Shown here: positions 18,417-46,824 of the stretch, in pieces
Numbering within the stretch: position 1 is the stretch's first letter
How the letters are laid out: every line of letters starts with the position of its first letter
Sequence record: NZ_CP024444.1
Length of the DNA: 64,000 nucleotides
Source: a plasmid
Strand: one strand, 5' to 3'
The notes under the pieces: model-generated
Databases searched by the model: none
What the model saw: only the letters and a program-made list of their open reading frames with translations
What the model was told of the DNA's origin: nothing
Made by a program: the position numbers and the translations under genes

Positions 18417-18424
18417 ACAAACTC

Positions 18425-22710: not shown

Positions 22711-22906
22711 ATTAAATAGAAAAAATAAAGAAACTCTAAAATATTGGTAAAATTAAAAACCTAAACCTAGTCTTTCATCTTTATTACCAAAACAACCCAC
22801 ATCTAATTATTATCCAAACCCCATATATCACGTCATGCAATCGCTAAAATTTGGTTTGGTCTAATGGCTAATGTGATTAATTTATAGAGGCTTTTTTAAA
22901 TTTATT

Positions 22907-25500: not shown

Positions 25501-25524
25501 TAAAAAACTAACCTTTGCGCAAAT

Positions 25525-26001
25525 TTATGAATTATCTAAAGTAGCTTTATTGGCTAATAACCGAATTAAATCTTTTAACTCATAATCTTTGTGAGCAATA
25601 GCACCAACCTTAATTAACCCATTCTCAATATGGTATAAATCATAAACAATAGCGTCTGATACCAAAACGGGTTGTTCATCAGGTACATTAATATCAATTA
25701 ATCGGATAACAGGTTCGCTATCATCATCCACGCCAGCCGAACCAAAACGTTCTGCACTCACAATAAAAGAAACATCGAAACCATCTAGCCAAAGTTCAAA
25801 TAAAAGACTTGCCGGGATATCACGACTACCTTTTTCATAATTGGCATACGTGGATTGGGCAATCGCTAATCGCTCATAAACAGATTTAGCCGTATAACCT
25901 AACCTTAACCGTTCTTGCTTTAATCGCTCACCGATAAACTTGAACGGATATTTTTTAAATTCAGCATCAATCTTTGCCATAAGTTGTTCTTGGGGGTTCA
26001 T
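25525..26001 (-). CDS. XRE-family (Cro/CI-type HTH) transcriptional regulator
   Basis: 158 aa with an N-terminal HTH (IGERLKQERLRLGYTAKSVYERLAIAQSTYANYEKG). Its own upstream region lacks the conserved promoter module but keeps the TAGCGATAGCTTGATATAG motif. Confidence 0.65.
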   Translation of the reverse strand: MNPQEQLMAKIDAEFKKYPFKFIGERLKQERLRLGYTAKSVYERLAIAQSTYANYEKGSRDIPASLLFELWLDGFDVSFIVSAERFGSAGVDDDSEPVIRLIDINVPDEQPVLVSDAIVYDLYHIENGLIKVGAIAHKDYELKDLIRLLANKATLDNS

Positions 26002-27967: not shown

Positions 27968-28258
27968 ATTAACAACCATGACCACGGCTTTTGGTGGTGA
28001 TGGTTGCAAGCTTTTCAGGCAATCATTCCCACGGCTTTTGGTGGGTATGAGGCCCTCTTGTCTTAGCTCGGATAGTCAAGGCTGGCAAGTATGAAACGCA
28101 GGCAATCGCCTACGGATCATGCGGCTTGATGACTTATCGCGTTAGCAGGAAGTCAGCAAGACCATGAAGCCGTCAGCGAGTGACAAGAGTAATACTGCCA
28201 AGACTGACGTTGCTGGCGTCTTTTTGCCAGCAATCCGCCAAAGTCTTTATCAGTTTAA
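27968..28258. repeat. 290-bp GC-rich repeated element, copy 2
   Basis: Near-identical to 25211-25500. It is followed by about 700 bp without a convincing ORF (28260-28945). Confidence 0.6.
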
Positions 28259-28947: not shown

Positions 28948-29334
28948 TTAACCTGTAAAGTTAAAGTAGTGAAAGCTTGCGCGTGTACCGTTACCTGTTA
29001 AGCCATCAGATAAGATACCATACAAACGGTATAGCACATCATGCACTGCATCCGAGCCACAGCTGCGTATCACTAGGTTACCGTTTCTATTCATACGCTC
29101 ACCAAGCACCTTATGAAGAATTGGCGTGATGTTCATAAATTTATTGTCTTTGACCAAACCAAAGCGGATTTGGTGGGTGTAACCGCTTGCTGATACATGG
29201 GCTTCATTAGCAACCACATCGACGGTGTGGCGGTTATTCCACATGTATTCAAGCACTTCGCCCATGTCGTTATCGACAGATGGGTTATCTTGCATCAGGG
29301 TAATGATATTTGGGTTTTGAATAGATGTTGTCAT
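28948..29334 (-). CDS. hypothetical protein
   Basis: 128 aa with the module upstream (29340-29470). Confidence 0.5.
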   Translation of the reverse strand: MTTSIQNPNIITLMQDNPSVDNDMGEVLEYMWNNRHTVDVVANEAHVSASGYTHQIRFGLVKDNKFMNITPILHKVLGERMNRNGNLVIRSCGSDAVHDVLYRLYGILSDGLTGNGTRASFHYFNFTG

Positions 29335-29624: not shown

Positions 29625-30557
29625 TTAGGCGCGTGAGAGTAAAGCTGGTGTGTTTTGCTCAAATGGCGTCACGATGTAGCTAACGTTGCCATTAAAATCA
29701 GCACTACCAATGCATGATAACGGCTTACCAATGAAATTGTCTTTAATCGGTCTGCCTTTGGCGTCACTGGTAACCGCCTGTACCAATAAGATGGTATCAA
29801 AGTTTTCGCTATTCATGCCAAGCTTGACCACTTGGTAGAACAGTTTGGCATCGGGTTTGCTAGTTGAGCTTGCCTGTAAAAAATCACCGACCTTTAATTG
29901 CTCGTTGTATTGGTTTTCTACCATATCCAAGCTTAGGGTGAGCTGCTTGTAAACTTCAATCAAGGCTTCAAACAAGTCAGCCGGGTTATCAAAATGGCAA
30001 GCACTGCTTTGGTTAAATACGGCAATACCGATAGGGCGTTTACCGTCATAAGCCACAATCATCATGATACTAGCGTTCAAGTAGCTTAAAATTACATCGG
30101 TCCAGGTGGCGTTGAATTTTTCTTTGACCAGTGCGCGACGTCCCTGTACCAATTGATTGCTTTCAAAGTTGTTGCGTGACTCGTTATCGTCGACGACAAG
30201 TTTACCCTTTGGGCTTAATTGGTTGTAGGCAACTTGGGCTTGCTTGATGGTAAATTGGTCAATGTATTTGACATACTGACTAATTTCTTCAATGGTGGTT
30301 ATCATGTCAGGATAAAACAAGGTATTTAGGTTTTTAAGCGGCTGCCCGGTGGGTACGTGCATCTTAGACTGGTTGTCGTGCGTTCTAATCACAGTAAAAG
30401 GTGGGGTCAGTAGTGTGCCTTTGCTGTGGATTTTGCCGTCATCATTGACCAGCGCATTGTGCCCAGCTTTGCTTTCAGCCATCCAGCTGCCCAGCATCAG
30501 CTTATGATTTTTACTGTATTTGAAGTTATCAATAATAGCGATTAGGGTGTTTTTCAT
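29625..30557 (-). CDS. family B paralog (unknown function; motifs GTLLTPPFT, IMxxFA, QVGD, IRCIAxD)
   Basis: 310 aa. It shares conserved blocks with 31896-32939, 33051-34037, 36738-37736, 38502-39515 and 44536-45495. Confidence 0.55.
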   Translation of the reverse strand: MKNTLIAIIDNFKYSKNHKLMLGSWMAESKAGHNALVNDDGKIHSKGTLLTPPFTVIRTHDNQSKMHVPTGQPLKNLNTLFYPDMITTIEEISQYVKYIDQFTIKQAQVAYNQLSPKGKLVVDDNESRNNFESNQLVQGRRALVKEKFNATWTDVILSYLNASIMMIVAYDGKRPIGIAVFNQSSACHFDNPADLFEALIEVYKQLTLSLDMVENQYNEQLKVGDFLQASSTSKPDAKLFYQVVKLGMNSENFDTILLVQAVTSDAKGRPIKDNFIGKPLSCIGSADFNGNVSYIVTPFEQNTPALLSRA

Positions 30558-30848
30558 GATGGTTATCCTTTTGGTTGGGGTTATGGTGTCGAGCCTATCT
30601 CGTTTCCATGTACTTATAATAACGCTTTAACCGTGTATAGTCAAGCGGTTTAACCGTTTATATACAAGCTATTCGACGGATGGCTGGCGCAGGCGCGATG
30701 TGTGTTAACCCACACTCCCCCATACATAAGCTCTTATAGCACTAGCTATCGCTTGAATTAGATCAGCTCGCCTGTCCAATACCCACCGATGCGATGGGCA
30801 TAAAAAAACTTGCTAGGGTTAACTAGCAAGTCTGTTGTTTGGGTGGGC

Positions 30849-31607
30849 TTATGCTAAGGGACGTTTTTTGCTCTTGGATTTATCATTTTTACGGCATTCA
30901 TTTAATGCCACAAAACTTTTAGCAAGGGTTAGGATGCCTTCTTTATATACTTTCCAAAAATCTAAGGCATCGAATTCCATTCGGGCTATCTCGCTACTGC
31001 TAAAATTTTCCCATTCTTCGATGGTGTGGCATTTACAGCCGATACGGATTTTGTCATTCATCAAGCTGATAAACCACTGATAATCATATAAACACAATAC
31101 CGGATAAGGTAGCTTGGCGAAGGTGATATTTGCACCACGAAAAATGGCTTGTTCAATGTCGCATTGGGTGAAGTCGGTTTGTTTCAATGATGCGTTGGTA
31201 AAGTTGGTATTAATGGTATTGGCATTGGTAAAAATTGAGCAATCAAGGTTACAGCCATCAAGATGGGTTAATTCTAGGTTGCTATCCGTAAAGTTACAAT
31301 TGCTAAGGTTGGCTTGATAAAAATAAGCTTGGCGTAAATCTGCGTTGGTAAAATTTACCCGACGTCCTTTTACATTGGTCATGTTGGTTTGGCATAAGTT
31401 AGCATTTTCAAAATTGGCATTGCTGATATCGCAGTTAATAAGGCTTGCACCGAATAAATTTGCACCGCTTAGGTTTGCACCTGTTAAATCAAACCCTTTT
31501 AAGTCCATGTCTTTTAAGTCGATGTTGCGTAAGTCGGCTTTAACTAGGGTGTCTAAATCAAGTGTGATAGTCGATTTGTTGTATACATGCTTGATGGTGA
31601 TAGCCAT
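30849..31607 (-). CDS. pentapeptide-repeat protein with conserved C-terminal RIGCxCH domain
   Basis: 252 aa with tandem A(D/N)LxX pentapeptides (ANLSGANLFGASLINCDISNANFENANL...) and the C-terminus ...WFISLMNDKIRIGCKCHTIEEW. Confidence 0.75.
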   Translation of the reverse strand: MAITIKHVYNKSTITLDLDTLVKADLRNIDLKDMDLKGFDLTGANLSGANLFGASLINCDISNANFENANLCQTNMTNVKGRRVNFTNADLRQAYFYQANLSNCNFTDSNLELTHLDGCNLDCSIFTNANTINTNFTNASLKQTDFTQCDIEQAIFRGANITFAKLPYPVLCLYDYQWFISLMNDKIRIGCKCHTIEEWENFSSSEIARMEFDALDFWKVYKEGILTLAKSFVALNECRKNDKSKSKKRPLA

Positions 31608-31654
31608 GAGAGTATTCCTTTTGGTTGGGTGATGGTAGCGAGCCTATCTCGTTT

Positions 31655-31700
31655 CCATGTGCTTATAATAACGCTTTAACCGTGTATAATCAAGCGGTTT
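31655..31700 (-). promoter_or_regulatory. representative copy of the conserved sigma70-type promoter of the array (-35 TTGATT, 17-nt spacer, -10 TATTAT) bracketed by CGGTTAAACCG-like sites
   Basis: On the minus strand the sequence reads CGGTTAAACCGCTTGATTATACACGGTTAAAGCGTTATTATAAGCACATGG. The -10 is at 31663-31668 and the -35 at 31686-31691. The same block recurs upstream of about 35 genes with at most a few substitutions. Confidence 0.55.
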
Positions 31701-31895
31701 AACCGTGTTTTTACCCATTTTCCGATAAACGGTAAAAGCGTTTTTCGGGTCGGCTGACACGTTTCCCTCCAGGTAAGAATGTTTTTTTGATATAGCGATC
31801 GTTTGATATAGGCCATCACGCACGCCCAAACAGCGAGCCAAAAAAAACGCCTTACTATCAAGTAAAGCGTTGGGTGGGTGGGTCAAGGCTTATCG

Positions 31896-32939
31896 CTAAA
31901 TACCGTATTTGGACTTAAAAGTTTCAGTCGGAAAGTTGGTCATGACCTTGTCATGTTTGGCAGTCACCATGATTTGTGTATTAACGACAGTCACAAAACA
32001 TTCAATCGGTGGTGTGATGTATGCGCCTTGTTTTGGCATAGTGGTCGCTAACATGGGGTTGTCGGCATCTTCAACAAAACCACTAATACCACGGATGATT
32101 AACGTTTGACCACCATAAAAATCATCGTTGACCACATCAATCACTTCATAGTTTTGACATAAGCCCATTAATAGCCATTTTGAATAAGCACTGCTATAAC
32201 AAATGATATCACCCACCTGAAGTGACGGGTTTGATTGGGTGTTAAGTGATGGCTTGATAGCATGACCAAGTTCGACATATAAATCTGCCATTAATTTTAA
32301 AATCAAGTTTTGACCTTTGTATTCAATTACGCCACGATGGGTAAACAACACAAGCCCACGATGGGTACTAGCGGTGTTATAGGCAAATACCATAAACTCA
32401 CCATCACGGTAGACGCTTAACAATTCGCTATCAGCATAGTCAAGGTCGGTACAGATGTAGTTTTGGCGAGCAAGGTACAATGGGTCGTTTAAAAATGCGT
32501 TGGGGTCTTGGGGGTGTTGGGCAATATCAAGCACCGCTTTGTCAGTGGCTTTGTAGGCATCATGGAATGAATTGAGCATATTTTGGTCAAGGGTTTGGAC
32601 GTATTGTTCCATCTTAGTTTTGCAATCATATACCACATGGTAACTGCTCACCCATTCACCTTTATAAAAGGATGGATATTTACCACTATTGGGGTTTTCC
32701 ATCACCCAAATGGCGGTTTCTTTGCTGTATTTAATCTCGCTATTGGGTAAAAACATCGCTTTGGTTACGATAAAGCCGTTAGTGCCGTTTTGTCTGATTA
32801 ATGGCTTGATGCTATCAATGCGGTCTTGGATTTCATCAATCAGTTGGGCGTGGTCATGGCTTGTAATCACGCGCTTAGTAAGGTCGTAAAAACGTGGGAT
32901 TGATGTGTTTTGTGGTTTGAGTAAAACGATATCGCTCAT
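31896..32939 (-). CDS. family B paralog
   Basis: 347 aa with the shared motifs (LPNSE..., MVFAYN, QVGDII, IIRGISG). Confidence 0.55.
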   Translation of the reverse strand: MSDIVLLKPQNTSIPRFYDLTKRVITSHDHAQLIDEIQDRIDSIKPLIRQNGTNGFIVTKAMFLPNSEIKYSKETAIWVMENPNSGKYPSFYKGEWVSSYHVVYDCKTKMEQYVQTLDQNMLNSFHDAYKATDKAVLDIAQHPQDPNAFLNDPLYLARQNYICTDLDYADSELLSVYRDGEFMVFAYNTASTHRGLVLFTHRGVIEYKGQNLILKLMADLYVELGHAIKPSLNTQSNPSLQVGDIICYSSAYSKWLLMGLCQNYEVIDVVNDDFYGGQTLIIRGISGFVEDADNPMLATTMPKQGAYITPPIECFVTVVNTQIMVTAKHDKVMTNFPTETFKSKYGI

Positions 32940-33050
32940 GGGGTTATCCTTTTGGTTGGGGTCGGATGCGAGCCTATCTCGCTGTCCATGAGAGTATTAT
33001 AACGGTTTTACCGTGTATAATCAAGCGGTAAAACCGTTTTTTATGGTTAA

Positions 33051-34037
33051 TTAAGCCACTGCCGGATGATGGTTTGGGTGGGTACCATAAACATCAAGCA
33101 CATTTAAGGCGTGTCTTGTCCCTGCCAGTCCATTAAATATCACCACACCATCCGCGCCTGTGTACAAGCAGATATCAAGGGGTGCGCCAATATACTTACC
33201 GCGAATAGGTTGGAACTTTTTATCAAACATAATCGCTTGCATCTTGCCTGTCTGCATCTGCCCACTATTTGGCGTATCAAGGTGGGTGACTTCATAAAAA
33301 TGGGTATGAGAGCATTCGTCCATGGCATTGGCTAAAATCGTACCTATCTCAATTGGCTTGCTGTCATTGGCGTGGCTTAATGCCTTTTGGGTATCGACGT
33401 GGTCTTCAATCGCATCATATAGGTGCGCCATGACCAATAGAATACTATTCCACCCGTGATAAAAATAGGTGGCATGGGGCAAGCACAAGGCATAGCCTTT
33501 TTTGTGTTCTTCGGTGGTGGCAAACAATAAAATATCATCATCAAGCCAACTGCCAATTAACTCAACATAGCGAGCATTAAAATAGCTTTTTACGCCCTCT
33601 AAGCGATTGCTATACAATGGGTGCAAGTGGCTGTGGATGTGGTAGCCTTGCTTTTGGACAATGGCTTTGGTCTGTTCGCTTGCATCCTTGAGCCTTTCTT
33701 CAAAGTCAGTGATTTGCTGACGGTCACGCTCAAGCACGAATTGACGAGCCGACCACAACTCCCCAAAAAAGTAACTAGGCGTGGTGTATTCAGCATCAAG
33801 TAACGGGCAATCATTGCGTGACGTGAGCACATAACGCCCATTGTTATTGACCGATAGCAAACAAGGCGGCTGAAATAGCGTACCATCACAAAAATAGACG
33901 CCATCTTGAACGTGGCTTTTTTTGGTGACCCGTTGAAAAGGTTGTGAGCAAGTTTTGCTTAGTCCGCGCATTTCTTCGCATAGGGCTAGATGGTCGGTGC
34001 TGTGTACGATACTTTTCATCAAAACATATAAATTCAT
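33051..34037 (-). CDS. family B paralog (second gene of a two-gene unit)
   Basis: 328 aa. It has no full module of its own; the module lies upstream of the preceding 38-aa peptide gene. Confidence 0.5.
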   Translation of the reverse strand: MNLYVLMKSIVHSTDHLALCEEMRGLSKTCSQPFQRVTKKSHVQDGVYFCDGTLFQPPCLLSVNNNGRYVLTSRNDCPLLDAEYTTPSYFFGELWSARQFVLERDRQQITDFEERLKDASEQTKAIVQKQGYHIHSHLHPLYSNRLEGVKSYFNARYVELIGSWLDDDILLFATTEEHKKGYALCLPHATYFYHGWNSILLVMAHLYDAIEDHVDTQKALSHANDSKPIEIGTILANAMDECSHTHFYEVTHLDTPNSGQMQTGKMQAIMFDKKFQPIRGKYIGAPLDICLYTGADGVVIFNGLAGTRHALNVLDVYGTHPNHHPAVA

Positions 34038-34113
34038 GGCAATTATCCTATTGGTTTTAAGTGGTGGGTGGGCGGTAAGTGAGCCTTTCTCAACTAACCG
34101 TTAATCAGCATTA

Positions 34114-34230
34114 TTATTTTTTAAGCACGCGTTTAACACTGGGGGCGACTTTGCGTTGAGCCGTTCCCAAATAGCGATACATCATTAAAGACAATGGGTA
34201 AATAAAAGCACTGATTTGTAAAAAATTCAT
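34114..34230 (-). CDS. 38-aa hydrophobic peptide (MNFLQISAFIYPLSLMMYRYLGTAQRKVAPSVKRVLKK)
   Basis: Not in the ORF track. An ATG follows the conserved module and AAAAGGA RBS, and the peptide has a single transmembrane-like segment. Confidence 0.4.
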   Translation of the reverse strand: MNFLQISAFIYPLSLMMYRYLGTAQRKVAPSVKRVLKK

Positions 34231-34519
34231 GGCCGTTCCTTTTGGTTGGGTGATGGTAGCAAGCCTATCTCGCTGTCCATGTAGTTATAATAACGCTTTA
34301 ACCGTGTATAATCAAGCGGTTTAACCGTGTTTTTACCCATTTTCCGATAAACGGTAAAAGCGTTTTTCGGGTCGGCTGACACGTTTCCCTACAATTTACT
34401 ATCCTTGTACTAGCTATGGCTTGATGTAGATCAGCTCGCCTGCCTAACGCCTGCCAAAATCGGTACAAAAAAAGCCACAATACGATGATTGTAGCTTTGG
34501 GTGGGTGGGCGTGATGCGA

Positions 34520-35266
34520 CTAGGCGACTTGCTTTTTAGATGGCGTGATTTTTTTAAGCTGTTGCTCACTAAACGCGGTAGCGATGGCTAAAATTTCCTC
34601 TTTGAATTCTTCCCAAAACTCAATGGCGTAGTCATCCATATCAATGATTTCGTTACCATCAAAATTACGCCATTCTTCAATGCTATAACATTTACAGCCA
34701 ATGCGTAGCATATCGTCACATACGCTGATAAACCACTCATAGTTATACAGGCAAAGCAATTTTTTGGGTAATACGGTGCAATCTAACACGGTATAGTCAA
34801 AAACCGTTCGACGAATATCCGACTTCATCAAATTAGCTTCAGTTAAATTGGCACAGGTAAATTGCGTGGTGTCCAAATTGGTGTTGTTAAAGACCACCCA
34901 TTGAAAATTTGAACGGTATAAATTGGATTTGCTTAAATTCACATTGTCAAAAATTGCATGTTTAAAGTCGGCATTGGAAGCCACCACCATTGCCATATTC
35001 GCATTACTAAAGTCGGCATTGCCTGCCCTTGAGCCATTTAAATTGGCGTGAGTCATGTTGGCATGACTAAAATTAGCTTCAAACAGTTCGCAGTCGGTCA
35101 TAATAGCCCGTGATAAATTGGCACCGCTAAAATTTGCCTTGGATAAATCAACACTGGTAAAAATAGCACCAGCTAAGTTTTGACCGCTAAAGTCATAGCC
35201 TTGCAGGGTATCAGCATCGATAACTAGGTCGTCTTTCTTGCCAAAAAATTTAATGGTAATACTCAT
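34520..35266 (-). CDS. pentapeptide-repeat protein with conserved C-terminal RIGCxCY domain
   Basis: 248 aa with pentapeptide tandems and the C-terminus YEWFISVCDDMLRIGCKCYSIEEW. Confidence 0.75.
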   Translation of the reverse strand: MSITIKFFGKKDDLVIDADTLQGYDFSGQNLAGAIFTSVDLSKANFSGANLSRAIMTDCELFEANFSHANMTHANLNGSRAGNADFSNANMAMVVASNADFKHAIFDNVNLSKSNLYRSNFQWVVFNNTNLDTTQFTCANLTEANLMKSDIRRTVFDYTVLDCTVLPKKLLCLYNYEWFISVCDDMLRIGCKCYSIEEWRNFDGNEIIDMDDYAIEFWEEFKEEILAIATAFSEQQLKKITPSKKQVA

Positions 35267-35604
35267 GGGTGTGTCCTTTTGGTTGGGGGTCGGAATTGAG
35301 CCTATCTCGTTTCCATGATGCTATTATAACGGTTTTAGCGTGTTTAATATAACGGTTTTAGCGTTTATTTATCGATTTTCCGATAAACGGTTTTAACGTT
35401 CACCACGCCCACCACCCACCTACCCCGACCCTTAGTCATGCTTGCCTTAGAGTTCGCTTGCGCTAGGTGCATCCTTGCTACCGGATAAAACCATCGCCAA
35501 AAAAAATGCTATACAGGTGTATAGCATTGACTGGTGTGACTAAGCTTCATTAGACTAGACGGCATCAGGCATGTCATGACTGCCGTATGGGTTGGCATAG
35601 TCAG

Positions 35605-36432
35605 TTAGCTGACTTGTTTTTGTCCCTGAAAGATGCTCACGCCCATACCGACATCGTCATGTTTTTGTTGATATAAGCCGTCTTTAAATTGGTAGTCTTT
35701 TTCATACGAATGGTAGAAAGCACAGGCGATTTCGAGTATTTCATATTTATGCCAACGCCAAAACGATAAGGCTTCATCGCCCATATTCTCAATTTGCTCT
35801 GCGTTAAAGTCTTTCCATTGTTTGATGGTATGACACTGGCATCCAATACGGATGGTATCGGCACAAATAAAAATTGGCCAGTTGTAATGATACAAAAACA
35901 TCACCTTAAAAGGAAATAAGGCGGTCATGATGTTTGTTCCCCAAAAAATAGCGTAGCGGATGTCTGCTTGCTGAAAGTCGGCACAGCTAATAGTGGCGTT
36001 AAAAAAATTGGTTGCTAGTAAATCTGCCTTATCAAAACTTGCTTGCACAAGACTTGCGCCCGTGAATTGGGCATACTGACAGTTGGCATCATGAAAATTA
36101 CTAAAATTAAAATTGGCATGACTGGCATGAATGCTTTTGAGATTGGCGTGTTTAAAGCGTCCCTTCAGTAGCGTTGCGCTAGTAAAATTAGCCCCTTGTA
36201 AATCAGCGTTTTCAAAATTGACATGATTTAACGTCGCCTTATCAAAACGCGCATACTGTAAATTGCATCCGCTAAAATTGGCATTGGTTAAGTCCATGCC
36301 GATAAAGTCAGCACCTTGTAAATTGGCACCGCTAAAATCATGCCCCACAAGACTGTCGCCCTCGATGGTTGCAAGGATGGCTTTTGATTTGAAGGAATTA
36401 TGCGTAAGGTAGCTTTGAATTTCGATGGTCAT
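35605..36432 (-). CDS. pentapeptide-repeat protein with conserved C-terminal RIGCQCH domain
   Basis: 275 aa with pentapeptide tandems and the C-terminus ICADTIRIGCQCHTIKQW. Confidence 0.75.
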   Translation of the reverse strand: MTIEIQSYLTHNSFKSKAILATIEGDSLVGHDFSGANLQGADFIGMDLTNANFSGCNLQYARFDKATLNHVNFENADLQGANFTSATLLKGRFKHANLKSIHASHANFNFSNFHDANCQYAQFTGASLVQASFDKADLLATNFFNATISCADFQQADIRYAIFWGTNIMTALFPFKVMFLYHYNWPIFICADTIRIGCQCHTIKQWKDFNAEQIENMGDEALSFWRWHKYEILEIACAFYHSYEKDYQFKDGLYQQKHDDVGMGVSIFQGQKQVS

Positions 36433-36737
36433 ACTTTTATCCTTTTGGTTGGGTGTTGGAATTGAGCCTTTCTCGTTTCCATGATGCTATTATAACGGTT
36501 TTAGCGTGTTTAATATAGCTGTTTAACCGTGTTTTTACTCATTTTCCGACGAACGGTAAAACCGTTTTTAGGTTGGCTGGCACGTTTCCCCGTACTTAAT
36601 GACCCTTGTACTAGCCATATCTTGAGATATGTACTAGCCATATCTTGAGATAGCCGATCGGCACCGACTGCCGTTTGTTAGCCATCAGCCACAAAAAAGC
36701 ATGGTGTGGTTACCATGCTTGGGCATATCAAGTCATC

Positions 36738-37736
36738 TTAGCGTGGGACGGCTTCAACTACCCTTAATCGGGCATTGTACAGCAAAAGCGACTGCTGACT
36801 ATCTACTTTTAAATAACCGTTGACGTGTTTGGCAATACAAGCAATCTCACTGCCTAAAAATGCATTGGTGATTGGATTGTTTAGGCTGTCATAGGCAATA
36901 CAGCGCAGTTTAATGGCGTTGCCTTGTTTGCTGATGTTCTCGCCTACTTGGGTGATTTGGTAGTATTGGCTCGGGTTGGTGTTGTTAAACCGTTCAAGTC
37001 TTACAATACTACCGACACCGATATCTAGCATATTTTCCGGTTGTTGGTTGTTGTAAAGAAATAATTTGGCGGTTTCACAAAAACCATAGAGTTTGCTCAT
37101 GACGTCTAAAATGCTATTAAGTCCATAGCTTAAATACATACTGTTGTCGCCATACAGCGCATAGCCTTGTGAATAGCTTTCTTTGGTGGGCGTGGTGCAA
37201 GCAAATAGCATGATGGTATCATTGGCATAACTGCCGATAAGTTCAGCTTGCGTATTTTGAAAATACTGCTTGGTGAATGCTAAACGTGGGGCATGCAGTG
37301 GGTGAGCTTGGCTTTGCTCGCTCACCTGGTTGTTTTGTGCCAAGTTGCGCACGTCTTTACTGGCGTTTTCATACGCAAATTGAAAGCATCCGATTGCGCT
37401 TAAATCATCACATTTGATACGCAACAGGGCAATTTCTTCGCTCAAAAAGCGGTGATTTTTTTGTAGCTCGGTACAATCGATTAAATACTCGCCATTGATG
37501 GGTTGTACGGTGTAAAAATCTTCTTCCCCCACGACATTACTACGCTCAAGGGTTGTGATAGGCTGTAACAAGGTGGGCGTGGTGACAAAACCGGATGCAG
37601 TTTTTTCGATGGTGGCACGGTGCTGTTTCTCAAGCTTGAATAACTGCTTAATGAGTGCCGAATGATTATCGCTTGCCATGACAAGACGCATGACTTGTTC
37701 AGGGGTGATAGGGGCTTGGGTGCTATGGCTTGGCAT
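36738..37736 (-). CDS. family B paralog
   Basis: Start reassigned to MPSHSTQAPI (ATG at 37734-37736, after AAAAGGA). The ORF track extends 95 codons upstream through the module. Confidence 0.55.
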   Translation of the reverse strand: MPSHSTQAPITPEQVMRLVMASDNHSALIKQLFKLEKQHRATIEKTASGFVTTPTLLQPITTLERSNVVGEEDFYTVQPINGEYLIDCTELQKNHRFLSEEIALLRIKCDDLSAIGCFQFAYENASKDVRNLAQNNQVSEQSQAHPLHAPRLAFTKQYFQNTQAELIGSYANDTIMLFACTTPTKESYSQGYALYGDNSMYLSYGLNSILDVMSKLYGFCETAKLFLYNNQQPENMLDIGVGSIVRLERFNNTNPSQYYQITQVGENISKQGNAIKLRCIAYDSLNNPITNAFLGSEIACIAKHVNGYLKVDSQQSLLLYNARLRVVEAVPR

Positions 37737-38045
37737 AATCTTTTTCCTTTTGGTTGGGGTCGGATGTGAGCCTATCTCACAATCCATGTGCTTATAATAA
37801 CGCTTTAACCGTGTATAATAAAGCGGTATTAGCGTTTTTCTACCCATTTTCCGATGAACGGTAAAAGCGTTTTTAAAGTCGGCTGGCACGTTTCCCTGTA
37901 CTTTAGGGGGTTTACCTGATTTAGTGATAGCTTGGGCTAATACTGGGTTAGTAGGCTTGGTCGCAGCGGTATGCCAATCGGCATTAAAAGCTTGGGCAAC
38001 AAAAAACCCATGCACTGGCACGGGTTTGTTTGGGTGGGCGTGGGG

Positions 38046-38165
38046 TTACATTCTGGCACAGCGAAACACATAATAAATCACGGCAATGAATAATACCAAA
38101 ACAACGTTGCTGTCAAATAAAGACATAATGGCATTAAAGGCTTCGAGTTGTGATGAATATTGCAT
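38046..38165 (-). CDS. 39-aa hydrophobic peptide (MQYSSQLEAFNAIMSLFDSNVVLVLFIAVIYYVFRCARM)
   Basis: Not in the ORF track. It has its own full conserved module (38170-38300) and one predicted transmembrane helix. Confidence 0.4.
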   Translation of the reverse strand: MQYSSQLEAFNAIMSLFDSNVVLVLFIAVIYYVFRCARM

Positions 38166-38501
38166 ATTTTTTCCTTTTGGGTTGGGTGTAGGAATTGAGC
38201 CTTTCTCGTTTCCATGATGCTATTATAACGGTTTAACCGTGTATAATCAAGCGGTATTAGCGTGTATCTATGGTTTTCCGACGAACGGTAAAACCGTTTT
38301 ATCGGGCAAATCCTAGCCCGACCGCCCTAAAATTCATGTTATTTACTTGCGTTAGTGATAGTTTGACTTAGGGTGCACCAGCCACAGATGCACTAGCCGC
38401 GCCTGTTGCCCAGCTTGCCAGCAAAAAAACCACCAACCGATTTGGCGGTCAGTGGTCGGGCAGAATTTACTAGCTTGGATAGCCGCTAAAATTGCCTGTG
38501 C

Positions 38502-39515
38502 TTAGTGTGCGTTAGGCTCATACTTGGCAAGTTCAGTAATGCCACCAAGCGTACTGCCAGCAAATGGCATTAGGTAGCAAGCAATATAGCCTTCACGATA
38601 TAGGTGGACATACGCATTCATTTTGGGCGAAATCATACTATTTTTAACAGGCAGGGATTTGTCGTCATGCAAGATAGCGCGTAGGGTTATCATAACGGCT
38701 TGTTTGTTTAATGTGGGACTTACCTCTACCACCCGGTAGTAACGATAACAGCGGATGTTGAGATTGCGAAAATCTTCAAAAATATCACCCACCTGTACCA
38801 GCTTTTGAAATGGCGCATTTTCAATAATCACCGCAGCTGCGATGACTTGGTACAATCGGCACATGACGGTAAAACAATGTTGCAACCCACTAAAAAACTC
38901 GATGCCATCAGCATGGCATAGGGTGAAACCAGGGTAATCATGATTGGCGGTCATAAATACCATAATCGATCCATCCAAATAGCTACCCACCAAATTGGTA
39001 ACATTCATATTTTGCGCTGAAAAATAACGTTCAGCAATTTTTAGTCGTCCATCATGCAAGGTATCTAGCACCGACGTCACTTCGCTGGCATGATTGTTCT
39101 GAATTGCCATTATGGTTGCATCATACGCCTTGTTATACGCATCTTTAAACTCTTGGATGGCGTTATGGTCGGTTTCTTTCACATATTTTTTAGCCTGTGC
39201 CAACGACTCAAAGTAACGATACGGTTTAGAGTCGATGCGACTTATTGAGTACATATACGCTCGCCAGTCCGTCTTGCCCATCCATTGTTTTTTAATGTTG
39301 TCACGGTTTAGGGTGAATGGTGGCAGTAATAACGTACCGCTACAGACATAATCACTCCCCTGTTTGGTAAGATTGTAATCATACGCTTGGGTGGCACTTT
39401 GCAAGTCTTCAATCAATTCATCATGGTTGCGACTGGAAAATAAAGCGACACACAGGTCAACTAAGGTAGCAAAACCTTTGGTGGTTGCCGCGGCTTGGGC
39501 AATGGCAGTAGACAT
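38502..39515 (-). CDS. family B paralog
   Basis: Start reassigned to MSTAIAQ (ATG at 39513-39515). Shared motifs are GTLLLPPFT, IMVFMTA and QVGDIFED. Confidence 0.55.
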   Translation of the reverse strand: MSTAIAQAAATTKGFATLVDLCVALFSSRNHDELIEDLQSATQAYDYNLTKQGSDYVCSGTLLLPPFTLNRDNIKKQWMGKTDWRAYMYSISRIDSKPYRYFESLAQAKKYVKETDHNAIQEFKDAYNKAYDATIMAIQNNHASEVTSVLDTLHDGRLKIAERYFSAQNMNVTNLVGSYLDGSIMVFMTANHDYPGFTLCHADGIEFFSGLQHCFTVMCRLYQVIAAAVIIENAPFQKLVQVGDIFEDFRNLNIRCYRYYRVVEVSPTLNKQAVMITLRAILHDDKSLPVKNSMISPKMNAYVHLYREGYIACYLMPFAGSTLGGITELAKYEPNAH

Positions 39516-39879
39516 AATTTTTATCCTTTTGGTCGGGGTCGGACGCAAGCCTATCTCGCTATCCATATAGCTATAATAACGGTTTAACCGTGTATAATCA
39601 AGCGGTTTAACCGTGTTTTTACCCGTTTTCCGATAAACGGTAAAACCGTTTTTCGGGTCGGCTGACACGTTCCCCCGTACTTTAGGATGCTTTTTTTGAT
39701 GTAGTAATAACTTGGTTTAGATCGGTTCACTCGCCCATCGACGACAACTTGCCAGCAACAGGCAATAAAAAACCCACTGTCATGTGACAGTGGGGGGATT
39801 TTCCCAACCACGAGAAAACTAGAAAATTCGGTAATATTTAGCTTGCCAGCATCGCCAGCTGTGGACTTATCGCTTCAAT

Positions 39880-40269
39880 TTAGTTAAACGCTTGGGCAAT
39901 CTTAGTGCCACGGGTGTTAATTTCTTGTTCGATGTCGCTAACTATCTTGGTAATTGATACATTGCCACCGTTATTAAAGACACGCAGATTGTCTTTTAAC
40001 TCGTCGAAACTACTTTCAATATAAAATTTGCCATCTTGCCAAGCGATGTCAATGTTGAACGCTTTATTGCCAACAATCACCAAAACGTGCGATTTATAAC
40101 GCCCTGTACGTGTCTTAACCGTTTTTCGCTCAATTTTAAATACGACGTTCACATAACTGCCGTTTGGCAAACACACGGTAGAGTCAACCAGGTTTGGGTT
40201 ATCAATGAGTTTACCCTTCACTTTGATTTTGCGTAGGCTGTCGATACTAAAAACTGGAATAGTTGACAT
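39880..40269 (-). CDS. hypothetical protein
   Basis: The true start MSTIPVFS follows the RBS. The track's upstream 28 codons are leader translation. Confidence 0.45.
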   Translation of the reverse strand: MSTIPVFSIDSLRKIKVKGKLIDNPNLVDSTVCLPNGSYVNVVFKIERKTVKTRTGRYKSHVLVIVGNKAFNIDIAWQDGKFYIESSFDELKDNLRVFNNGGNVSITKIVSDIEQEINTRGTKIAQAFN

Positions 40270-40525
40270 ACATTTTCCTGTGGGTTGGGTGCCGGAATTG
40301 AGCCTATCTCGTTTCCATGATGTTATTATAACGGTTTTAGCGTGTAAATGCAAGCGGTTTAACCGTTTATTTAATAATATTTAGTACGCCAGCTCATTGA
40401 CGTATCAAGCATGGATTGATAACACCCGTATTTACTAGGTCAGTATGATAATTAATTGCGTTACCACCATGCCAAAAATTAAAAGGACTGCAATAGCAGT
40501 CCTAGTGTTTGATTAGATGCGATGA

Positions 40526-41044
40526 CTATAACGACATGCCGAGTGCATCATGTACGCTGTTAGTGATGATTTTCATCATGTCGGGGTTTTTGCTAATTTC
40601 TCTTAGGATGTTGCTAACCATGGTTTCCTGTAAATCGATTTCAGGATGCTCACCATCATATAAGATAAATTGCAAATCGGCATCATTTTGCAAGGCTTCA
40701 GGGATTTCAAAACGGATGATATTGTCTTCGTTTAACTCCACCATAGAAGTACCCACTGGAACATAGCTCAATTCATTGACGTCACGTAACATATCGTCGA
40801 TTAGCGAATTGGTAAGGTCTATGAATGGGATAAAATCAGGAAGGGCTTGTACACACGCCACAAAATGAATCTCTATACCTGACTCGGTGACAAGGTTTAA
40901 CTCCATAATACGACGGGCAATGACATGGTCAAAACCATACGGGCGTGCTTCAGGAATGATACCTTTAAAGCGAGTGTAGCTGTCAATTGACGTCACAGTC
41001 AGTTTGGCGTTGCTTAAATTGTCGATGATGTCTTGGATAGTCAT
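40526..41044 (-). CDS. family C paralog (unknown function)
   Basis: 172 aa, colinear with 49150-49680 (...LTVTSID...HPEIDLQE...). Confidence 0.5.
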   Translation of the reverse strand: MTIQDIIDNLSNAKLTVTSIDSYTRFKGIIPEARPYGFDHVIARRIMELNLVTESGIEIHFVACVQALPDFIPFIDLTNSLIDDMLRDVNELSYVPVGTSMVELNEDNIIRFEIPEALQNDADLQFILYDGEHPEIDLQETMVSNILREISKNPDMMKIITNSVHDALGMSL

Positions 41045-41344
41045 ATTTTTTCCTTTTGGTTGGGTGTAGGAATTGAGCCTTTCTCGTTTCCATGTAGTTA
41101 TAATAACGGTTTAACCGTGCATAGTCAAGCGGTTTAACCGTGTTTTTACCCATTTTCCGACGAACGGTAAAAGCGTTTTTCGGGTCGGCTGGCACGTTTC
41201 CCCATACGTTACGATGCTTTTTTTGCATTAGTGATAACTTGATATAGGATGTTGCCGAGCGTACCCATAAGGCATGCCAAACCTACCTGTCAAAGCAAAA
41301 AACCCTAGTCTTTGGCTAGGGTCTTAATTGTGGGGTTTAAGTGC

Positions 41345-41719
41345 TTAGGCGGCATTTAGGTAGGTTGCATAGATTTGGCTTAAGGTGGTTGGCTTAAAGT
41401 CTAAGTCAAGTTTCATGCTGTCGATTTCACAAAGTTCAACCAAGCTAATATAACCAAGCTCGCTAGGCCAATTGTGCAAACGCACTAAACCGAATGCTTG
41501 ATATTGTGGCTCTTCCATGTCTTTTTCAGTGATGAACCAATGGCAAGTATAACCGTTTGGTGTTTCAACCATGTAATGCAAGTGTGCCACCGCTTCATCG
41601 CCTAGCCCGTCTTGCTCATAGGTTTTTGGCATGGTGTCAAAGATTTCGTCAATTTTGGCTTTTTGCTCTTCAGTCAGTGCGTTTAATTGGCGTGGTGGTA
41701 CATAAGCTGAATTTTTCAT
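41345..41719 (-). CDS. hypothetical protein
   Basis: About 124 aa from MKNSAYVPP. The module lies upstream. Confidence 0.45.
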   Translation of the reverse strand: MKNSAYVPPRQLNALTEEQKAKIDEIFDTMPKTYEQDGLGDEAVAHLHYMVETPNGYTCHWFITEKDMEEPQYQAFGLVRLHNWPSELGYISLVELCEIDSMKLDLDFKPTTLSQIYATYLNAA

Positions 41720-42009
41720 AATCTTTTCCTTTTGGGTTGGGTTTAGGAATTGAGCCTTTCTCGTTTCCATGTGCTTATAATAACGGTTTTAGCGTGTATA
41801 ATCAAGCGGTTTTAGCGTTTATTTGATGATTTCCCGACGAACGGTAAAAGCGTTTTTTGGGAATGACTGACCTGTTCGCCCCATATGTCAGGGTGTTTTT
41901 TTTGCATTAGTGATGGCTTGATTTAGACCAGCTGGCTTACCGCCAAACGTTGGCGACAAAAAAACCTTGCAAGCTGTGCAAGCAAGGTCTTAATAATTTC
42001 ACTGGCTGG

Positions 42010-42717
42010 CTAGAATGTTGACATTTTAGCAAAGGCAATCATGCGCTTTTTGTAGTCGTGCCAAAAATCCAGCGCGTCACTGCTCATTTTATCAATGTCT
42101 TCATCGCTAAAGTTTTCCCATGTTTCGACAAGGTGGCATTGGCAACCAATTCTTAACATGCCATGGCGTGCGCTGACAAACCATTGATAGCCATATAGCA
42201 TCATCACATCACCATCGATATGAGCATACTCTAGTCGTGAGCCGTTGAAGATGGTTGTATCAATATTGGTATTGTCCAATTTGGCATGTTTAAGCTCACA
42301 ATCTGCCAAGCTAGTATGATGCAAATTTGCAAAGTCAAAATTAGCGATGCGTAGGTCGCAGTCGGTTATCAGGGCTTTGGTAAGGTTTGCTTGAAAGAAA
42401 TTGGTTTCCATCAATTCGGCATGATGGGCGGATGCATGCAATAAATTGGCTTTGCTAAAGTCGGCATTACTGGCTTTGGCGTTGGTTAATGATGCGCCCA
42501 CCAAGTTTGCATTGCTAAAGTTTGCCCACTCGATACAACTATCATTGAACTGTGCGCCTGTTAAGTTTGCACCGCTAAAATTGGTCTTGCTTAAGTGCAA
42601 GTTACTTAAATTGGCATTTTGTAAGTCCAAGTTGCTTAAGTCTGCGCCTGCAAGCGTATCAAGCTCTAACGTGATAATTGGGTTGCCTGTGTTTTTATGC
42701 TCGATAGTAATCGCCAT
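42010..42717 (-). CDS. pentapeptide-repeat protein with conserved C-terminal RIGCQCH domain
   Basis: The true start is MAITIEHKNTG. It has pentapeptide tandems and the C-terminus WFVSARHGMLRIGCQCHLVETW. Confidence 0.75.
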   Translation of the reverse strand: MAITIEHKNTGNPIITLELDTLAGADLSNLDLQNANLSNLHLSKTNFSGANLTGAQFNDSCIEWANFSNANLVGASLTNAKASNADFSKANLLHASAHHAELMETNFFQANLTKALITDCDLRIANFDFANLHHTSLADCELKHAKLDNTNIDTTIFNGSRLEYAHIDGDVMMLYGYQWFVSARHGMLRIGCQCHLVETWENFSDEDIDKMSSDALDFWHDYKKRMIAFAKMSTF

Positions 42718-43011
42718 GATTTTTTTCCTTTTGGTTGGGTGTTGGAATTGAGCCTTTCTCGTTTCCATGTGCTTATAATAACGCTTTAACCGTGTATAAT
42801 CAAGCGGTTTTAGCGTTTATTTGGGGGTTTTCCGACGAACGGTAAAACCGTTTTTAGACTCGGCTGGCATGTTTCCCCGTACCTAAGGGGGTTTATCTGA
42901 TTTAGTGATAACTTGATGTAGTCCATCACGCTCGCCTGTCGACGACAACTTGCCAGCAGGCAATAAAAAACCCACCTAATGACAAGGTGGGTATTATCCG
43001 GTAGTAATCAA

Positions 43012-43626
43012 TTATTTGGCTTGGGTGGCTGCCACATAAAAATATGCGCCCTCTTTGCCGATATGGTGTCGAAACTGCTCACCAAAGCGTTTAACCGTGC
43101 TTTCGGTAATCGGGAATGCTTTGCCACGATGACTAAATGTTATGATTTTCTCGTCGATGTGTTGCGGTAGGTTTAATTCAGGGGCATCACTTAGCACAAA
43201 TAGCATGCGTTCACGTTCAGCGGTGACGTGTTGTTTGGCTTGGTTGTATGACGCTTTTTTATCGGCATGGGCTTGCTTGTTTTTGGCGTTGCTGTCAATG
43301 AGTGTTTGTATTTGCTCACAGCTCACAGCACCGTTGTTGGTCGCAAGTTGGATAGCCGTGTTAATGGTCTTGGTATCAAACCAACCTTTTTGGATATGTT
43401 CATTCGCCCATTTAAAATAGTCTTGGGTGCGCTTGGTGTTGTTCATGTTATAGCGATTGCGATTGGCGATTTCTTTGTCGCGCATTCGAGAAATCACATT
43501 ATTGGGCGCACCACTACCACGAAAATTTTCAATGAGCGCAGACACGTCACTACCAAAACGCCCATTATTCAATAGGTTGTTAATTTGAGTTTCCGACTCA
43601 AGGATATCTGATACAAAAGTATTCAT
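43012..43626 (-). CDS. hypothetical protein (probably co-transcribed with ssb; upstream module truncated)
   Basis: 204 aa. The spacer to ssb is only 87 bp and carries a degenerate module. Confidence 0.45.
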   Translation of the reverse strand: MNTFVSDILESETQINNLLNNGRFGSDVSALIENFRGSGAPNNVISRMRDKEIANRNRYNMNNTKRTQDYFKWANEHIQKGWFDTKTINTAIQLATNNGAVSCEQIQTLIDSNAKNKQAHADKKASYNQAKQHVTAERERMLFVLSDAPELNLPQHIDEKIITFSHRGKAFPITESTVKRFGEQFRHHIGKEGAYFYVAATQAK

Positions 43627-43713
43627 AAAAACGTTCCTTTTGGTTGGGGTTGGTTGCGAGCCTATCTCGTTTCCATAATGAAATTATAGCGGTTTAAGGG
43701 ATTAAGTGCTTAC

Positions 43714-44208
43714 TTAAACTTTGGCTTTTGCCTTAACTAAAAAGGCTTCAGGGATGCCATCATCTTGTTGTACCATTGGTTGCTGATTAGCTTGTACCAT
43801 TGGTTGGCTATTGGCAACAGGTTGGCTTGCATACTCATCTTGGTCAGGGAATGGGATATTGGGTCGTCCACCACCGCTACTGCCTAGCATTTGCAAAGAG
43901 TCGCCATAGATTTCAGTCACATAGCGTTCAATGTTGTTGCTGTCCGTGTATTTGCGGTTGCGTAGTTCACCCTCAATAAAAACGCCAGCACCTTTTTTTA
44001 GGTAATTTTGGGCGATTTCTGCGAGTCGGTTGAACAACACCACGCGATGCCATTCGGTACGCTCTTTTTTCTCTTGGGTAGTCTTGTCTGTCCAAGTTTT
44101 CGTAGTAGCCATTGAAATGGTTGCGCACACGCCACCACTTGGCAATTGACGTACATCAGGGTCAGCACCTAAGTTGCCGATTAAAATTACTTTGTTTACA
44201 CCTTTCAT
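43714..44208 (-). CDS. ssb: single-stranded DNA-binding protein
   Basis: The OB-fold N-terminus (MKGVNKVILIGNLGADPDVRQLPSGG...WHRVVLFNRLAEIA) and a Gln/Pro-rich tail ending DDGIPEAF are present. The start is the ATG at 44206-44208. Confidence 0.85.
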   Translation of the reverse strand: MKGVNKVILIGNLGADPDVRQLPSGGVCATISMATTKTWTDKTTQEKKERTEWHRVVLFNRLAEIAQNYLKKGAGVFIEGELRNRKYTDSNNIERYVTEIYGDSLQMLGSSGGGRPNIPFPDQDEYASQPVANSQPMVQANQQPMVQQDDGIPEAFLVKAKAKV

Positions 44209-44535
44209 AACCTTATCCTTTTTAAAGAGTGTTCTAAACCAAGTGAGCCTATCTCGTCTTGATGATTTCATTATAACGGTTTAACCGTGTATAATCAAGC
44301 GGTTTAACCGTTTTTTATGATTTACCGATAAACGGTAATAGCGCGGATAAACGGTTTTCAAGGGTTTGGACACGCGGCCCTACAGTTAATCGCTTTTTGC
44401 TTTTCACCTTTGCATTAGCGACCACTTGATATAGGTTGTTCCTGCCAGCGGTAGCCAAGCAACGGGGTGCTAAAAATGGCAATAAAAAAACCCTAGTAAG
44501 CGTTAACTAGGGTTATTTCGTTATCCGGTGGTGGT

Positions 44536-45495
44536 TTAAGCTGCCAATTTGTCATCAATTGATGGTGATTGAGTCCGTAATACCGCATATCTTAGATTAT
44601 TATTGACCGTAGCATGGGCTTCATAGCGTTTGTCTTCGCTGTTATAAGTCACAAAGCAAGGAATATCGCCTGTTAAGTATTTACCACGGATTGGCGTGCC
44701 GTGGGCGTCAAAAGCAATACAGCGGATAGTAATTTCACCGCCTAGCTTGGTTGATAGCATATTAAGTTGGGTCACTTCAAAATAACGACGTGGTCTATCG
44801 CTATCATACTTAACGTTTTCAAAAATAGTGCCCAGCTCGATAGCATGAATTGGCTTGTCAACCTTGCGCAAATTATCAGATACCGCATAATAAATAAATC
44901 GCATAGCTCGAAGAATTTTATTTAGCCCACTAAAAAACTCCATGCCGTTTTGGTGAAATACTACTAGCCCTGTCTTGCCCTGTTCATAGCAGGCAAACAA
45001 CATGATATCACCGCCCATGTAGCAAGCCTCAAGCTCAACCTGTTGCGATTTCATGTGCTGACAAGCGAATTCATAACGGGCTTGGTAAAGTGGAAGATTT
45101 TTGCTGTTGGCATCGATTTGGTTATGCTCGGCAATGGCTCTGACGTTTTCGTGACTAATCACATCATAGCCCAGTGAAAAAATCTGCATGTTATTCCCAT
45201 TCTTGATGAATTTTTTACAGTCTGCTAGTTTCCGCATACGCACTTTATAAGTGGGGTGATCAATTTGCGGTAAGCATAACGATGGGTCATCACAAGTAAT
45301 TTGCCATTCGCCATCATTATTTTTATGTATGGTGACCGCAGGGGTTAACAGGGTTGCGGCACAAGTGTACCCAACACCATCTTTTTTATTTTTAAAGACG
45401 TTGGGGTGTTTTTCACTTAGCGAATTTAACTGCTCATGTAGGTCATGATGGTTGGTGCTGGTAACCACTAATTTAACAATGTCTGAAAGTTGCAT
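44536..45495 (-). CDS. family B paralog
   Basis: 319 aa with motifs CAATLLTPAVT, IMLFACY and IRCIAFDAHGTPIRGKY. Confidence 0.55.
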   Translation of the reverse strand: MQLSDIVKLVVTSTNHHDLHEQLNSLSEKHPNVFKNKKDGVGYTCAATLLTPAVTIHKNNDGEWQITCDDPSLCLPQIDHPTYKVRMRKLADCKKFIKNGNNMQIFSLGYDVISHENVRAIAEHNQIDANSKNLPLYQARYEFACQHMKSQQVELEACYMGGDIMLFACYEQGKTGLVVFHQNGMEFFSGLNKILRAMRFIYYAVSDNLRKVDKPIHAIELGTIFENVKYDSDRPRRYFEVTQLNMLSTKLGGEITIRCIAFDAHGTPIRGKYLTGDIPCFVTYNSEDKRYEAHATVNNNLRYAVLRTQSPSIDDKLAA

Positions 45496-45777
45496 CGGGT
45501 TTTATCCTTTTAGGTTGGGTGTAGGAATTGAGCCTATCTCGTTTCCATGTGCTCATTATAACGGTTTAACCGTGTATAATAAAGCGGTTTAACCGTTTAT
45601 TTGTCAATTTTCAGACAAACGGTTTTAGCGTCTAATTCGGATTTTTGACTACACTCCCCTACAAGTTAAGGTTTTTGCCTTAGTGTTCGCTTGAACTAGC
45701 GAATGTGCTTTGTTGACCACTCGCCAGCCAAGCCAAAAAAAACCAGTCATCGACTGGTCTTTTTTTTGGCTGGGTCA

Positions 45778-46512: not shown

Positions 46513-46824
46513 TGGAATTTTCCTTTTGGTCGGGGTCGGAATTGAGCCTATCTCGTTTCCATGTGTCTATAATAACGCTTTAACCGTGTATAATCAAGCG
46601 GTTTAACCGTGTTTTTACCCATTTTCCGACGAACGGTAAAAGCGTGTTTTACATCGGCTGGCGCGGTTTGCCCATATTTTAGGTTTTTATGATATAGCGA
46701 TGTCTTGGGTTAGCGTCCTCTCGCCTGCCAATTTACAAGCAAAAATAAACCCACTGTCATTTGACAGTGGGGGGTTTTTCCCAACCACGAGAAAGCTGTT
46801 TGATGCGTTTAGGTAGGCAGCATC

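Follow-up and report, generated by a model that had tools for sequence, protein, structure and literature searches.

Within the 64,000-nucleotide stretch of plasmid record NZ_CP024444.1 analysed here (the window, position 1 being its first letter), an array of approximately 38 kb (~24.3-61.9 kb) was identified in which all genes lie on the minus strand and which is composed of ~37 single-gene units. Six genes of this array, here named B1 to B6 (family B, Table 1), had been described in an earlier reading of the letters alone, termed the sequence-only reading in the following, as a diversified paralog family of unknown function. The window is 97.5% identical to the Moraxella osloensis plasmid pMOXF1 (CP040258.1, 248 kb), in which six of six B genes carry the annotation "hypothetical protein", and the B3 and B6 proteins match proteins of a 271.7-kb plasmid of M. 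osloensis strain NP7 exactly. All six open reading frames (ORFs) are present on the minus strand where they had been proposed. For B4 and B5 longer, GTG-started ORFs can be drawn, which were identified as read-through of the promoter cassette described below, and the ATG starts chosen for these two genes by the sequence-only reading follow a conserved AAAAGGA by 8-9 nt. B1 to B6 align over their full length, whereby nine columns are invariant and identity between rows amounts to 13-29%. Pairwise BLASTP connects B3, B4, B5 and B6 with each other over ~300 aa (E 1e-17 to 4e-28, 24-29% identity), and the more remote B1 and B2 are linked via B5 and B6 (~1e-9 to 1e-11), the pairs B1-B2 and B2-B3 being not significant on their own in pairwise BLASTP. 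In a leave-one-out test, where a profile built from five members was run against 553 ORF segments of the window, the held-out member was recovered in each of the six cases (E 1.3e-32 to 5.7e-59). Alignment and profiles hence bear out the assumption of one diverged paralog family; the leave-one-out E values are far beyond chance and do not stem from low complexity. The shared blocks on which this assumption was built are real at the level of the family, but none of them is intact in all six copies; the GTLLxPP block can be read clearly in B1, B3 and B5, whereas B4 and B6 hold a degenerate form and B2 has lost it. Family B is thus a real, highly diverged and tandemly amplified family.

That no known family could be recognised in these proteins was confirmed by all searches carried out. 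Scans with Pfam, NCBIfam and PHROGs returned no match for any of the six B proteins, PADLOC models revealed no family at E <=0.1, and a profile search of the PDB sequences remained without match. Searching 1.84 billion cluster representatives exhaustively by HMMER, on the basis of the family B profile and without word filter, gave six matches, all of them B proteins or their fragments, a word-indexed search of 5.8 billion proteins gave B self-matches and fragments only, and tblastn of B6 against PLSDB identified pMOXF1 only. Likewise, comparison with known anti-restriction and anti-defence families (ArdA, ArdB/KlcA, ArdC, PsiB, Acr and others) yielded neither a significant profile match nor a significant fold match to B. 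All named cluster members of the B proteins derive from M. osloensis, and public assemblies hold roughly 60 alleles of each paralog. Family B is hence an orphan, limited to one plasmid lineage of this species, and a new architecture that is absent from every database searched. The clusters of B2 and B5 also hold short fragments deposited as Xanthomonas citri, Klebsiella pneumoniae and Mycobacterium tuberculosis, located on contigs of 271-452 bp; as M. osloensis is a common contaminant, these entries probably reflect contamination.

Structural information was derived from an AlphaFold2 model of B6, for which the six-sequence alignment served as the only input alignment. The model (predicted local distance difference test, pLDDT, 68.9; predicted template modelling score, pTM, 0.69) consists of three parts, namely two helices with a small beta-meander (~residues 1-70), a segment comprising a helical stretch, a helix, a four-stranded antiparallel sheet and a further helix (~90-206), and a beta-barrel (~224-295), whereby both tails and two linkers are disordered. 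In none of the six B proteins was a signal peptide, a lipobox or a transmembrane segment found, the maximum of the Kyte-Doolittle 19-residue window is 0.8-1.7 without an N-terminal hydrophobic leader, and the pI ranges from 5.5 to 7.6. As judged from these sequence properties, the B proteins are soluble and cytoplasmic in character. The role in entry exclusion which the sequence-only reading had brought up is therefore disfavoured, since the B proteins do not belong to the envelope. A role as DNA mimics was likewise set aside for B, the proteins being not acidic.

The sequence-only reading had further assigned separate promoters to the six genes, which proved correct, as a copy of one and the same cassette was found ahead of each of them. 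Between ~24.3 and 61.9 kb such a cassette of ~100-250 nt precedes every minus-strand gene, and 37 copies were aligned. Each consists of a strong promoter of the sigma-70 type with a -35 element (TTGAYT or TTGACA) and a -10 element (TATWAT), overlapping operators, a hairpin in the 5' untranslated region (5'UTR) and the ribosome-binding site AAAAGGA, which is positioned 8-9 nt before the ATG. The putative operator is a 13-bp palindrome, ACGGTTnAACCGT, present in 2-3 copies per cassette that flank the -35 element and occupy the space between -35 and -10 at fixed spacing. Allowing up to one mismatch, it occurs 52 times as compared to 0.15 expected, all occurrences being located at 24.4-61.8 kb and hence only in the array. 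Several copies per promoter at fixed spacing imply one global repressor. The cassettes of all array genes are 70-90% identical to one another, and similarity among those of the B genes is no higher than among those of unrelated array genes, so the likeness of the cassettes points to constraint or homogenisation and not to recent co-duplication. Hairpins resembling terminators show a threefold excess (54 versus 17.9 expected); an array unit usually has one, and one is located 3' of B1, B2, B4, B5 and B6. Each B copy is therefore an independent transcription unit within a large regulon with one common operator. An exception among the B genes is B3, where a short leader ORF, for which several assemblies carry a gene call, separates the cassette from the start codon (Table 1). 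A search for the cassette motif GAGCCTWTCTCGTTTCCATG across the GTDB species-representative genomes returned two matches only (one archaeal, one in Pyrinomonadaceae), which is about the number expected by chance.

Table 1. Position of the B genes, their promoter cassettes and related features in the window
Feature	Position	Strand	Remarks
Type IVB secretion genes	1134-4284		DotB/TraJ-like ATPase, TraI/DotC-like, DotD
B1	29625-30557	-	310 aa; most divergent member; leave-one-out E 3.6e-33; pN/pS 0.39
B1 cassette	30558-30700		approximate; equivalent to B6 cassette
B2	31896-32939	-	347 aa; insertion in C-terminal barrel; leave-one-out E 1.3e-32; pN/pS 0.41
B2 cassette	32940-33050		approximate; equivalent to B6 cassette
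B3	33051-34037	-	328 aa; identical to ATR79770.1 (NP7); leave-one-out E 2.9e-51; pN/pS 0.26
Leader ORF	34114-34230	-	38 aa, partly hydrophobic; between cassette and B3 start
B3 cassette	34231-34380		approximate; equivalent to B6 cassette
B4	36738-37736	-	332 aa; leave-one-out E 1e-51; pN/pS 0.53 (3 differences only); in 4 of 7 haplotypes
B4 cassette	37737-37880		approximate; equivalent to B6 cassette
B5	38502-39515	-	337 aa; leave-one-out E 2.1e-52; pN/pS 0.26; two allele classes
B5 cassette	39516-39660		approximate; equivalent to B6 cassette
B6	44536-45495	-	319 aa; identical to ATR79781.1; leave-one-out E 5.7e-59; modelled member
B6 cassette	45496-45640	-	-35/-10 flanked by ACGGTTnAACCGT operators, 5'UTR hairpin, AAAAGGA
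Short SWGYEQTN paralog	54339-54713	-	124 aa, barrel only; 77% identical to C-terminus of the 55015-55740 protein
SWGYEQTN-family protein	55015-55740	-	241 aa; B profile match; C-terminal barrel related to B C-terminal domain

Outside the family itself, the best matches of the B profiles in the window are two further array proteins (E 1.9e-7 to 2.6e-4), which belong to a family referred to here as SWGYEQTN (Table 1), and these matches run through the block VGD..(loop)..YYxV...P..FIG. Profile-profile comparison of B and SWGYEQTN with hhalign gave a probability of 94.4% (E 8.6e-8, 56-61 columns), a reversed-column control giving 0.1%, and when the B profile was compared in this way with every other array protein, a shared domain was found only in the two SWGYEQTN proteins. 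By profile comparison, the C-terminal beta-barrel of B is hence a remote homolog, i.e., a degenerate relative, of the SWGYEQTN barrel. The SWGYEQTN family comprises at least 1,385 clusters at 90% identity, all of them annotated as "hypothetical" and without Pfam entry, and the motif W-G-Y-x-Q-T-N that follows the VGD strand is invariant in 48-49 sequences of the family. The AlphaFold model of its longer array member reached a pLDDT of 96.4 and a pTM of 0.82 and revealed no convincing neighbour in the PDB. By tblastn, SWGYEQTN was detected in 2,839 of the 72,556 PLSDB plasmids, 2,612 of which (92%) are predicted to be conjugative, with E. coli (878), Klebsiella (870) and Acinetobacter (283) as the largest groups. 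On pOXA-48 (IncL, MPF_I) a barrel-only form (WP_004187354.1; 6965-7303 of the pOXA-48 locus) resides in the leading region, ~6 kb from mobA/traI, and is neighboured by DUF4942, hha, DUF1380, an antirestriction gene and ssb; the family occurs also on IncI2 plasmids (e.g., WP_000855120.1). On phage and prophage contigs its genes locate to early or accessory regions beside RadC, DUF3560/methyltransferase and ERF/YqaJ genes. One member (P0102) was found to be fused to a RadC/JAB domain. Literature searches brought up no publication that deals with this plasmid array or with the homolog on pOXA-48. B and SWGYEQTN genes alike reside in regions of mobile elements devoted to accessory or establishment functions, and this array contains members of both families. 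The longer SWGYEQTN forms also seem to resemble the B6 model in the order of four-stranded sheet, helix and barrel, a likeness that concerns the order of elements in predicted structures. On the other hand, SWGYEQTN proteins have a length of ~110-250 aa and B proteins are ~100-130 aa longer at the N-terminus, no sequence similarity was seen outside the barrel, and B is found only on M. osloensis plasmids.

The selective regime of the B genes, for which diversifying selection had been suggested, was approached via alleles. At 17-29% amino-acid identity, the ratio of nonsynonymous to synonymous substitution rates (dN/dS) between paralogs carries no meaning, and because of this excessive divergence the alleles of each paralog were compared instead, yielding the corresponding ratio for polymorphisms (pN/pS). 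Seven plasmid haplotypes were compared, five of which were obtained from metagenome assemblies. The seven haplotypes document purifying selection with pN/pS of 0.26-0.53 (Table 1), the uppermost value, that of B4, resting on three differences only, and the idea of diversifying selection was not supported. Purifying selection on B resembles that on the pentapeptide-repeat genes of the array (0.40-0.63) and is weaker than that on ArdC (0.12); an ORF of 128 aa (28948-29334) and one of 172 aa (40526-41044) gave 0.07 and 0.13, respectively. For B5, 37.5 synonymous and 35.5 nonsynonymous differences were counted. This gene occurs in two allele classes of ~92.6% identity, between which pS is 0.05 in the N-terminal and 0.38 in the C-terminal third. 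This mosaic divergence indicates recombination with more distant alleles. A 124-aa gene at 41345-41719 likewise occurs in two allele classes, which are ~92% identical. B4 together with its cassette (36433-38310 region) is absent from three haplotypes (L019, L023 and L024), which do contain the neighbouring B5 and pentapeptide genes, so that the B copy number is five or six across haplotypes. Presence or absence of B4 and the two-class alleles of B5 and of the 124-aa gene point to recombination among array variants within the M. osloensis population. The pMOXF1 copy of B6 has its final 54 nt replaced, and an IS5-adhP-IS5 insertion lies beside this site. The B genes are hence old, constrained paralogs, of which whole units are gained and lost, and they are functional, as derived from allelic pN/pS and from the pTM which the B6 model reached on only six sequences.

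Considering this, the most likely role of the B proteins is tentatively suggested to be that of cytoplasmic plasmid-establishment or host-interference factors, an assignment which is derived from context and which we regard as possible; a strict anti-defence role is weighted lower. ArdC and a single-stranded DNA-binding protein (SSB) are encoded in the same co-oriented array, and the type IVB secretion genes are adjacent to it. Together with the uniform orientation, the common operator and the leading-region relatives of the C-terminal domain, this makes a role in anti-defence or establishment plausible. Leading regions of conjugative plasmids harbour anti-defence and establishment genes such as ArdA, ArdB/KlcA, ArdC, PsiB and SSB (Samuel et al. 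2024, PMC11541004), and ArdC is among the families enriched there (PMC11541004). Like the B array, leading regions hold many small, mostly uncharacterised genes that adjoin transfer genes and are co-located and co-oriented with ArdC and SSB, and the expression control of B would suit a burst on entry. Unlike B, they encode Ard, Klc and Psi proteins, to which B has no similarity in sequence or fold, and they use Frpo/ssi hairpins, where the B array possesses putative repressor-controlled double-stranded promoters. The array may also be compared with the kil-kor regulon of IncP-1 plasmids, in which the kle, klc and kla operons are controlled via KorA and KorB operators. In common with it, the array has many accessory units with shared palindromic promoter operators as well as internal paralogs; it differs in consisting of ~37 near-identical cassettes with one gene each and in its operator sequence. 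No kle, klc or kla homologs are known from the array.

The mechanism suggested for these genes assumes that one plasmid repressor silences the whole array via the ACGGTTnAACCGT operators. All units are presumably under the control of this one repressor, since every unit possesses the same promoter, operator and 5'UTR parts, and the helix-turn-helix protein encoded at 25525-26001 and the plasmid ParB are candidates for it. Upon entry of the plasmid into a cell which lacks the repressor, the array would be expressed as a burst. The B proteins would then act in the cytoplasm during establishment by binding either host proteins or nucleic-acid intermediates, whereby the divergent paralogs may cover different targets or hosts.

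Several findings weigh against this assignment. No relaxase or oriT was recognised, and MOB-suite classifies pMOXF1 as non-mobilizable. The transfer-region proteins are mostly without Pfam match. As no relaxase or oriT was identified, the label "leading region" is given to the array by its gene content only. Its promoters resemble ordinary double-stranded sigma-70 promoters and not single-strand promoters of the Frpo type, and allele comparisons gave no sign of gene-wide positive selection. The connection to SWGYEQTN has limits of its own, because barrel homology covers only ~60 columns, the reciprocal HMM search was not significant, and hhalign detected no similarity between the middle region of B and the N-terminal region of SWGYEQTN. 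B moreover lacks the W-G-Y-x-Q-T-N motif, the aligned loop being variable (e.g., ENVKYDSDRPRRYFEV and RLERFNNTNPSQYYQI), hence a function of SWGYEQTN, even if known, need not transfer to B. Finally, both family B and the SWGYEQTN family are functionally uncharacterised.

Among the alternatives, it was considered that the B proteins handle nucleic acids rather than inhibit defence, i.e., that they are establishment factors which bind plasmid single-stranded DNA, double-stranded DNA or RNA during conversion, replication or recombination. The B genes are indeed interleaved with those of SSB and of ArdC, which binds single-stranded DNA. However, the B proteins are near-neutral and not basic, and one common plasmid substrate would poorly explain six highly divergent paralogs, which renders this explanation unlikely. 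A function in competition between elements or in addiction, in which the B proteins would be immunity-like or toxin-neutralising or would exclude related plasmids or phages, is judged improbable. Immunity proteins typically form multi-paralog, fast-diverging families, and small hydrophobic ORFs (38 and 39 aa) lie behind two cassettes, one of them immediately upstream of B3, but no cognate toxin genes were recognised beside the B copies, PADLOC remained without match, and the lack of membrane features in the B proteins makes classical entry exclusion unlikely. That the B genes are dispensable, hitch-hiking cargo, amplified and removed by recombination between the repeated cassettes without specific benefit to the plasmid, has the lowest probability, as the variable presence of B4, the replaced 3' end of B6 next to the IS5/adhP insertion in pMOXF1 and pN/pS values above those of ArdC and of the 28948-29334 and 40526-41044 ORFs are opposed by six intact reading frames in the window, by pN/pS clearly below 1 (e.g., that of B5) and by core motifs that are kept across paralogs at only ~20% identity and thus reveal long-term constraint.

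Returning to establishment or host interference, the relationship of the barrels allows for a far-reaching extension, which we consider doubtful. B and SWGYEQTN might constitute one unrecognised superfamily of early effectors of conjugation and phages, with a new fold and the capacity to neutralise host factors; in M. osloensis the barrel would have been fused to N-terminal modules, amplified to five to six paralogs with different targets and placed into repressor-controlled cassettes from which all copies would be fired together. Family B as such is narrow, being confined to conjugative-type megaplasmids of one species, and its array documents the way in which many accessory genes, each with its own promoter but under joint regulation, are assembled and reshuffled on a plasmid. 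Of wider interest is the link of the B C-terminal domain to the uncharacterised but confidently folded SWGYEQTN family, which ~4% of the plasmids sequenced so far carry, among them pOXA-48, IncI2 and IncX-size resistance plasmids, and which on pOXA-48 resides in the leading region, a known clustering site of anti-defence genes. SWGYEQTN proteins and B paralogs are thus concrete and cheap candidates for anti-defence or establishment screens, whereby the SWGYEQTN family and the cassette array are arguably more valuable leads than family B.

Beside the B genes, ArdC (PF08401 and PF18818), SSB and the helix-turn-helix regulator, the array encodes four pentapeptide-repeat paralogs, weakly DUF2958-like and DUF6927-like proteins and several other two- or three-member paralog families. 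The pentapeptide-repeat paralogs (30849-31607, 34520-35266, 35605-36432 and 42010-42717, minus strand) are 36-41% identical and possess a common non-repeat C-terminal extension (..YxWFIS...D.(L/I)RIGC.CH.(I/V)E.W.NF..); they are possibly establishment proteins of the DNA-mimic type. Further paralogs form three pairs (40526-41044/49150-49680, 45778-46512/60974-61735 and 56745-57155/57452-58099) and one triple (47198-47875/48186-48842/60004-60612), related at BLASTP E 1e-6 to 1e-50. Growth of the array is thus largely owed to duplication and divergence.

In pMOXF1 the type IVB secretion genes directly adjoin the array, its first gene following within ~1.4 kb after the DotD gene, and a DotM-like gene is close by. 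In the window, ~19 kb of cargo rich in insertion sequences (4588-23700) lie between the two, comprising a UvrA-like ABC protein, NDH-2, an esterase, DUF3422 and a GFA/zinc-ADH formaldehyde module as well as glutamate-cysteine ligase, a ZIP transporter and cydB with a truncated cydA. The other array end leads to TnpB, followed by parAB and rep. There, beside the TnpB gene, three tandem 102-bp repeats (63333-63611) were found, each containing the palindrome AAAAACTTGCGTTAACGCAAACTTTT, and as parA and parB follow this array end in pMOXF1, the repeats may represent a centromere or an iteron-like site. Rfam and tRNA scans revealed nothing relevant.

With regard to the cassettes, the conserved 5'UTR hairpin is located just downstream of the -10 element (e.g., 45525-45555, minus strand, GGAA..GAG-ATAGG-CTC..TTCC). 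Standard pairs occupy 76% of its cells as compared to 20-41% in slid controls, and five pairs were found to be changed on both sides (e.g., GGAA/TTCC, TGAT/ATCA, CAAG/CTTG), a count that was matched by 64 of 500 shuffles. The hairpin may serve as an mRNA 5' stabiliser or as a regulator site. Between B5 and B4 an otherwise "empty" cassette is followed by a partly hydrophobic 39-aa ORF as its sole ORF (38046-38165, minus strand), which was called as a gene in several independent assemblies. A 288-nt direct repeat (25217-25504 and 27971-28258, 98% identical) is located upstream of two different array units, its copies being far more alike than the cassettes around them. Finally, a 63-nt module with the terminator hairpin CCCACTGTCAnnTGACAGTGGG is present in three copies of 75-90% identity (39758-39820, 46735-46797 and 56007-56069), all of which lie downstream of array genes.

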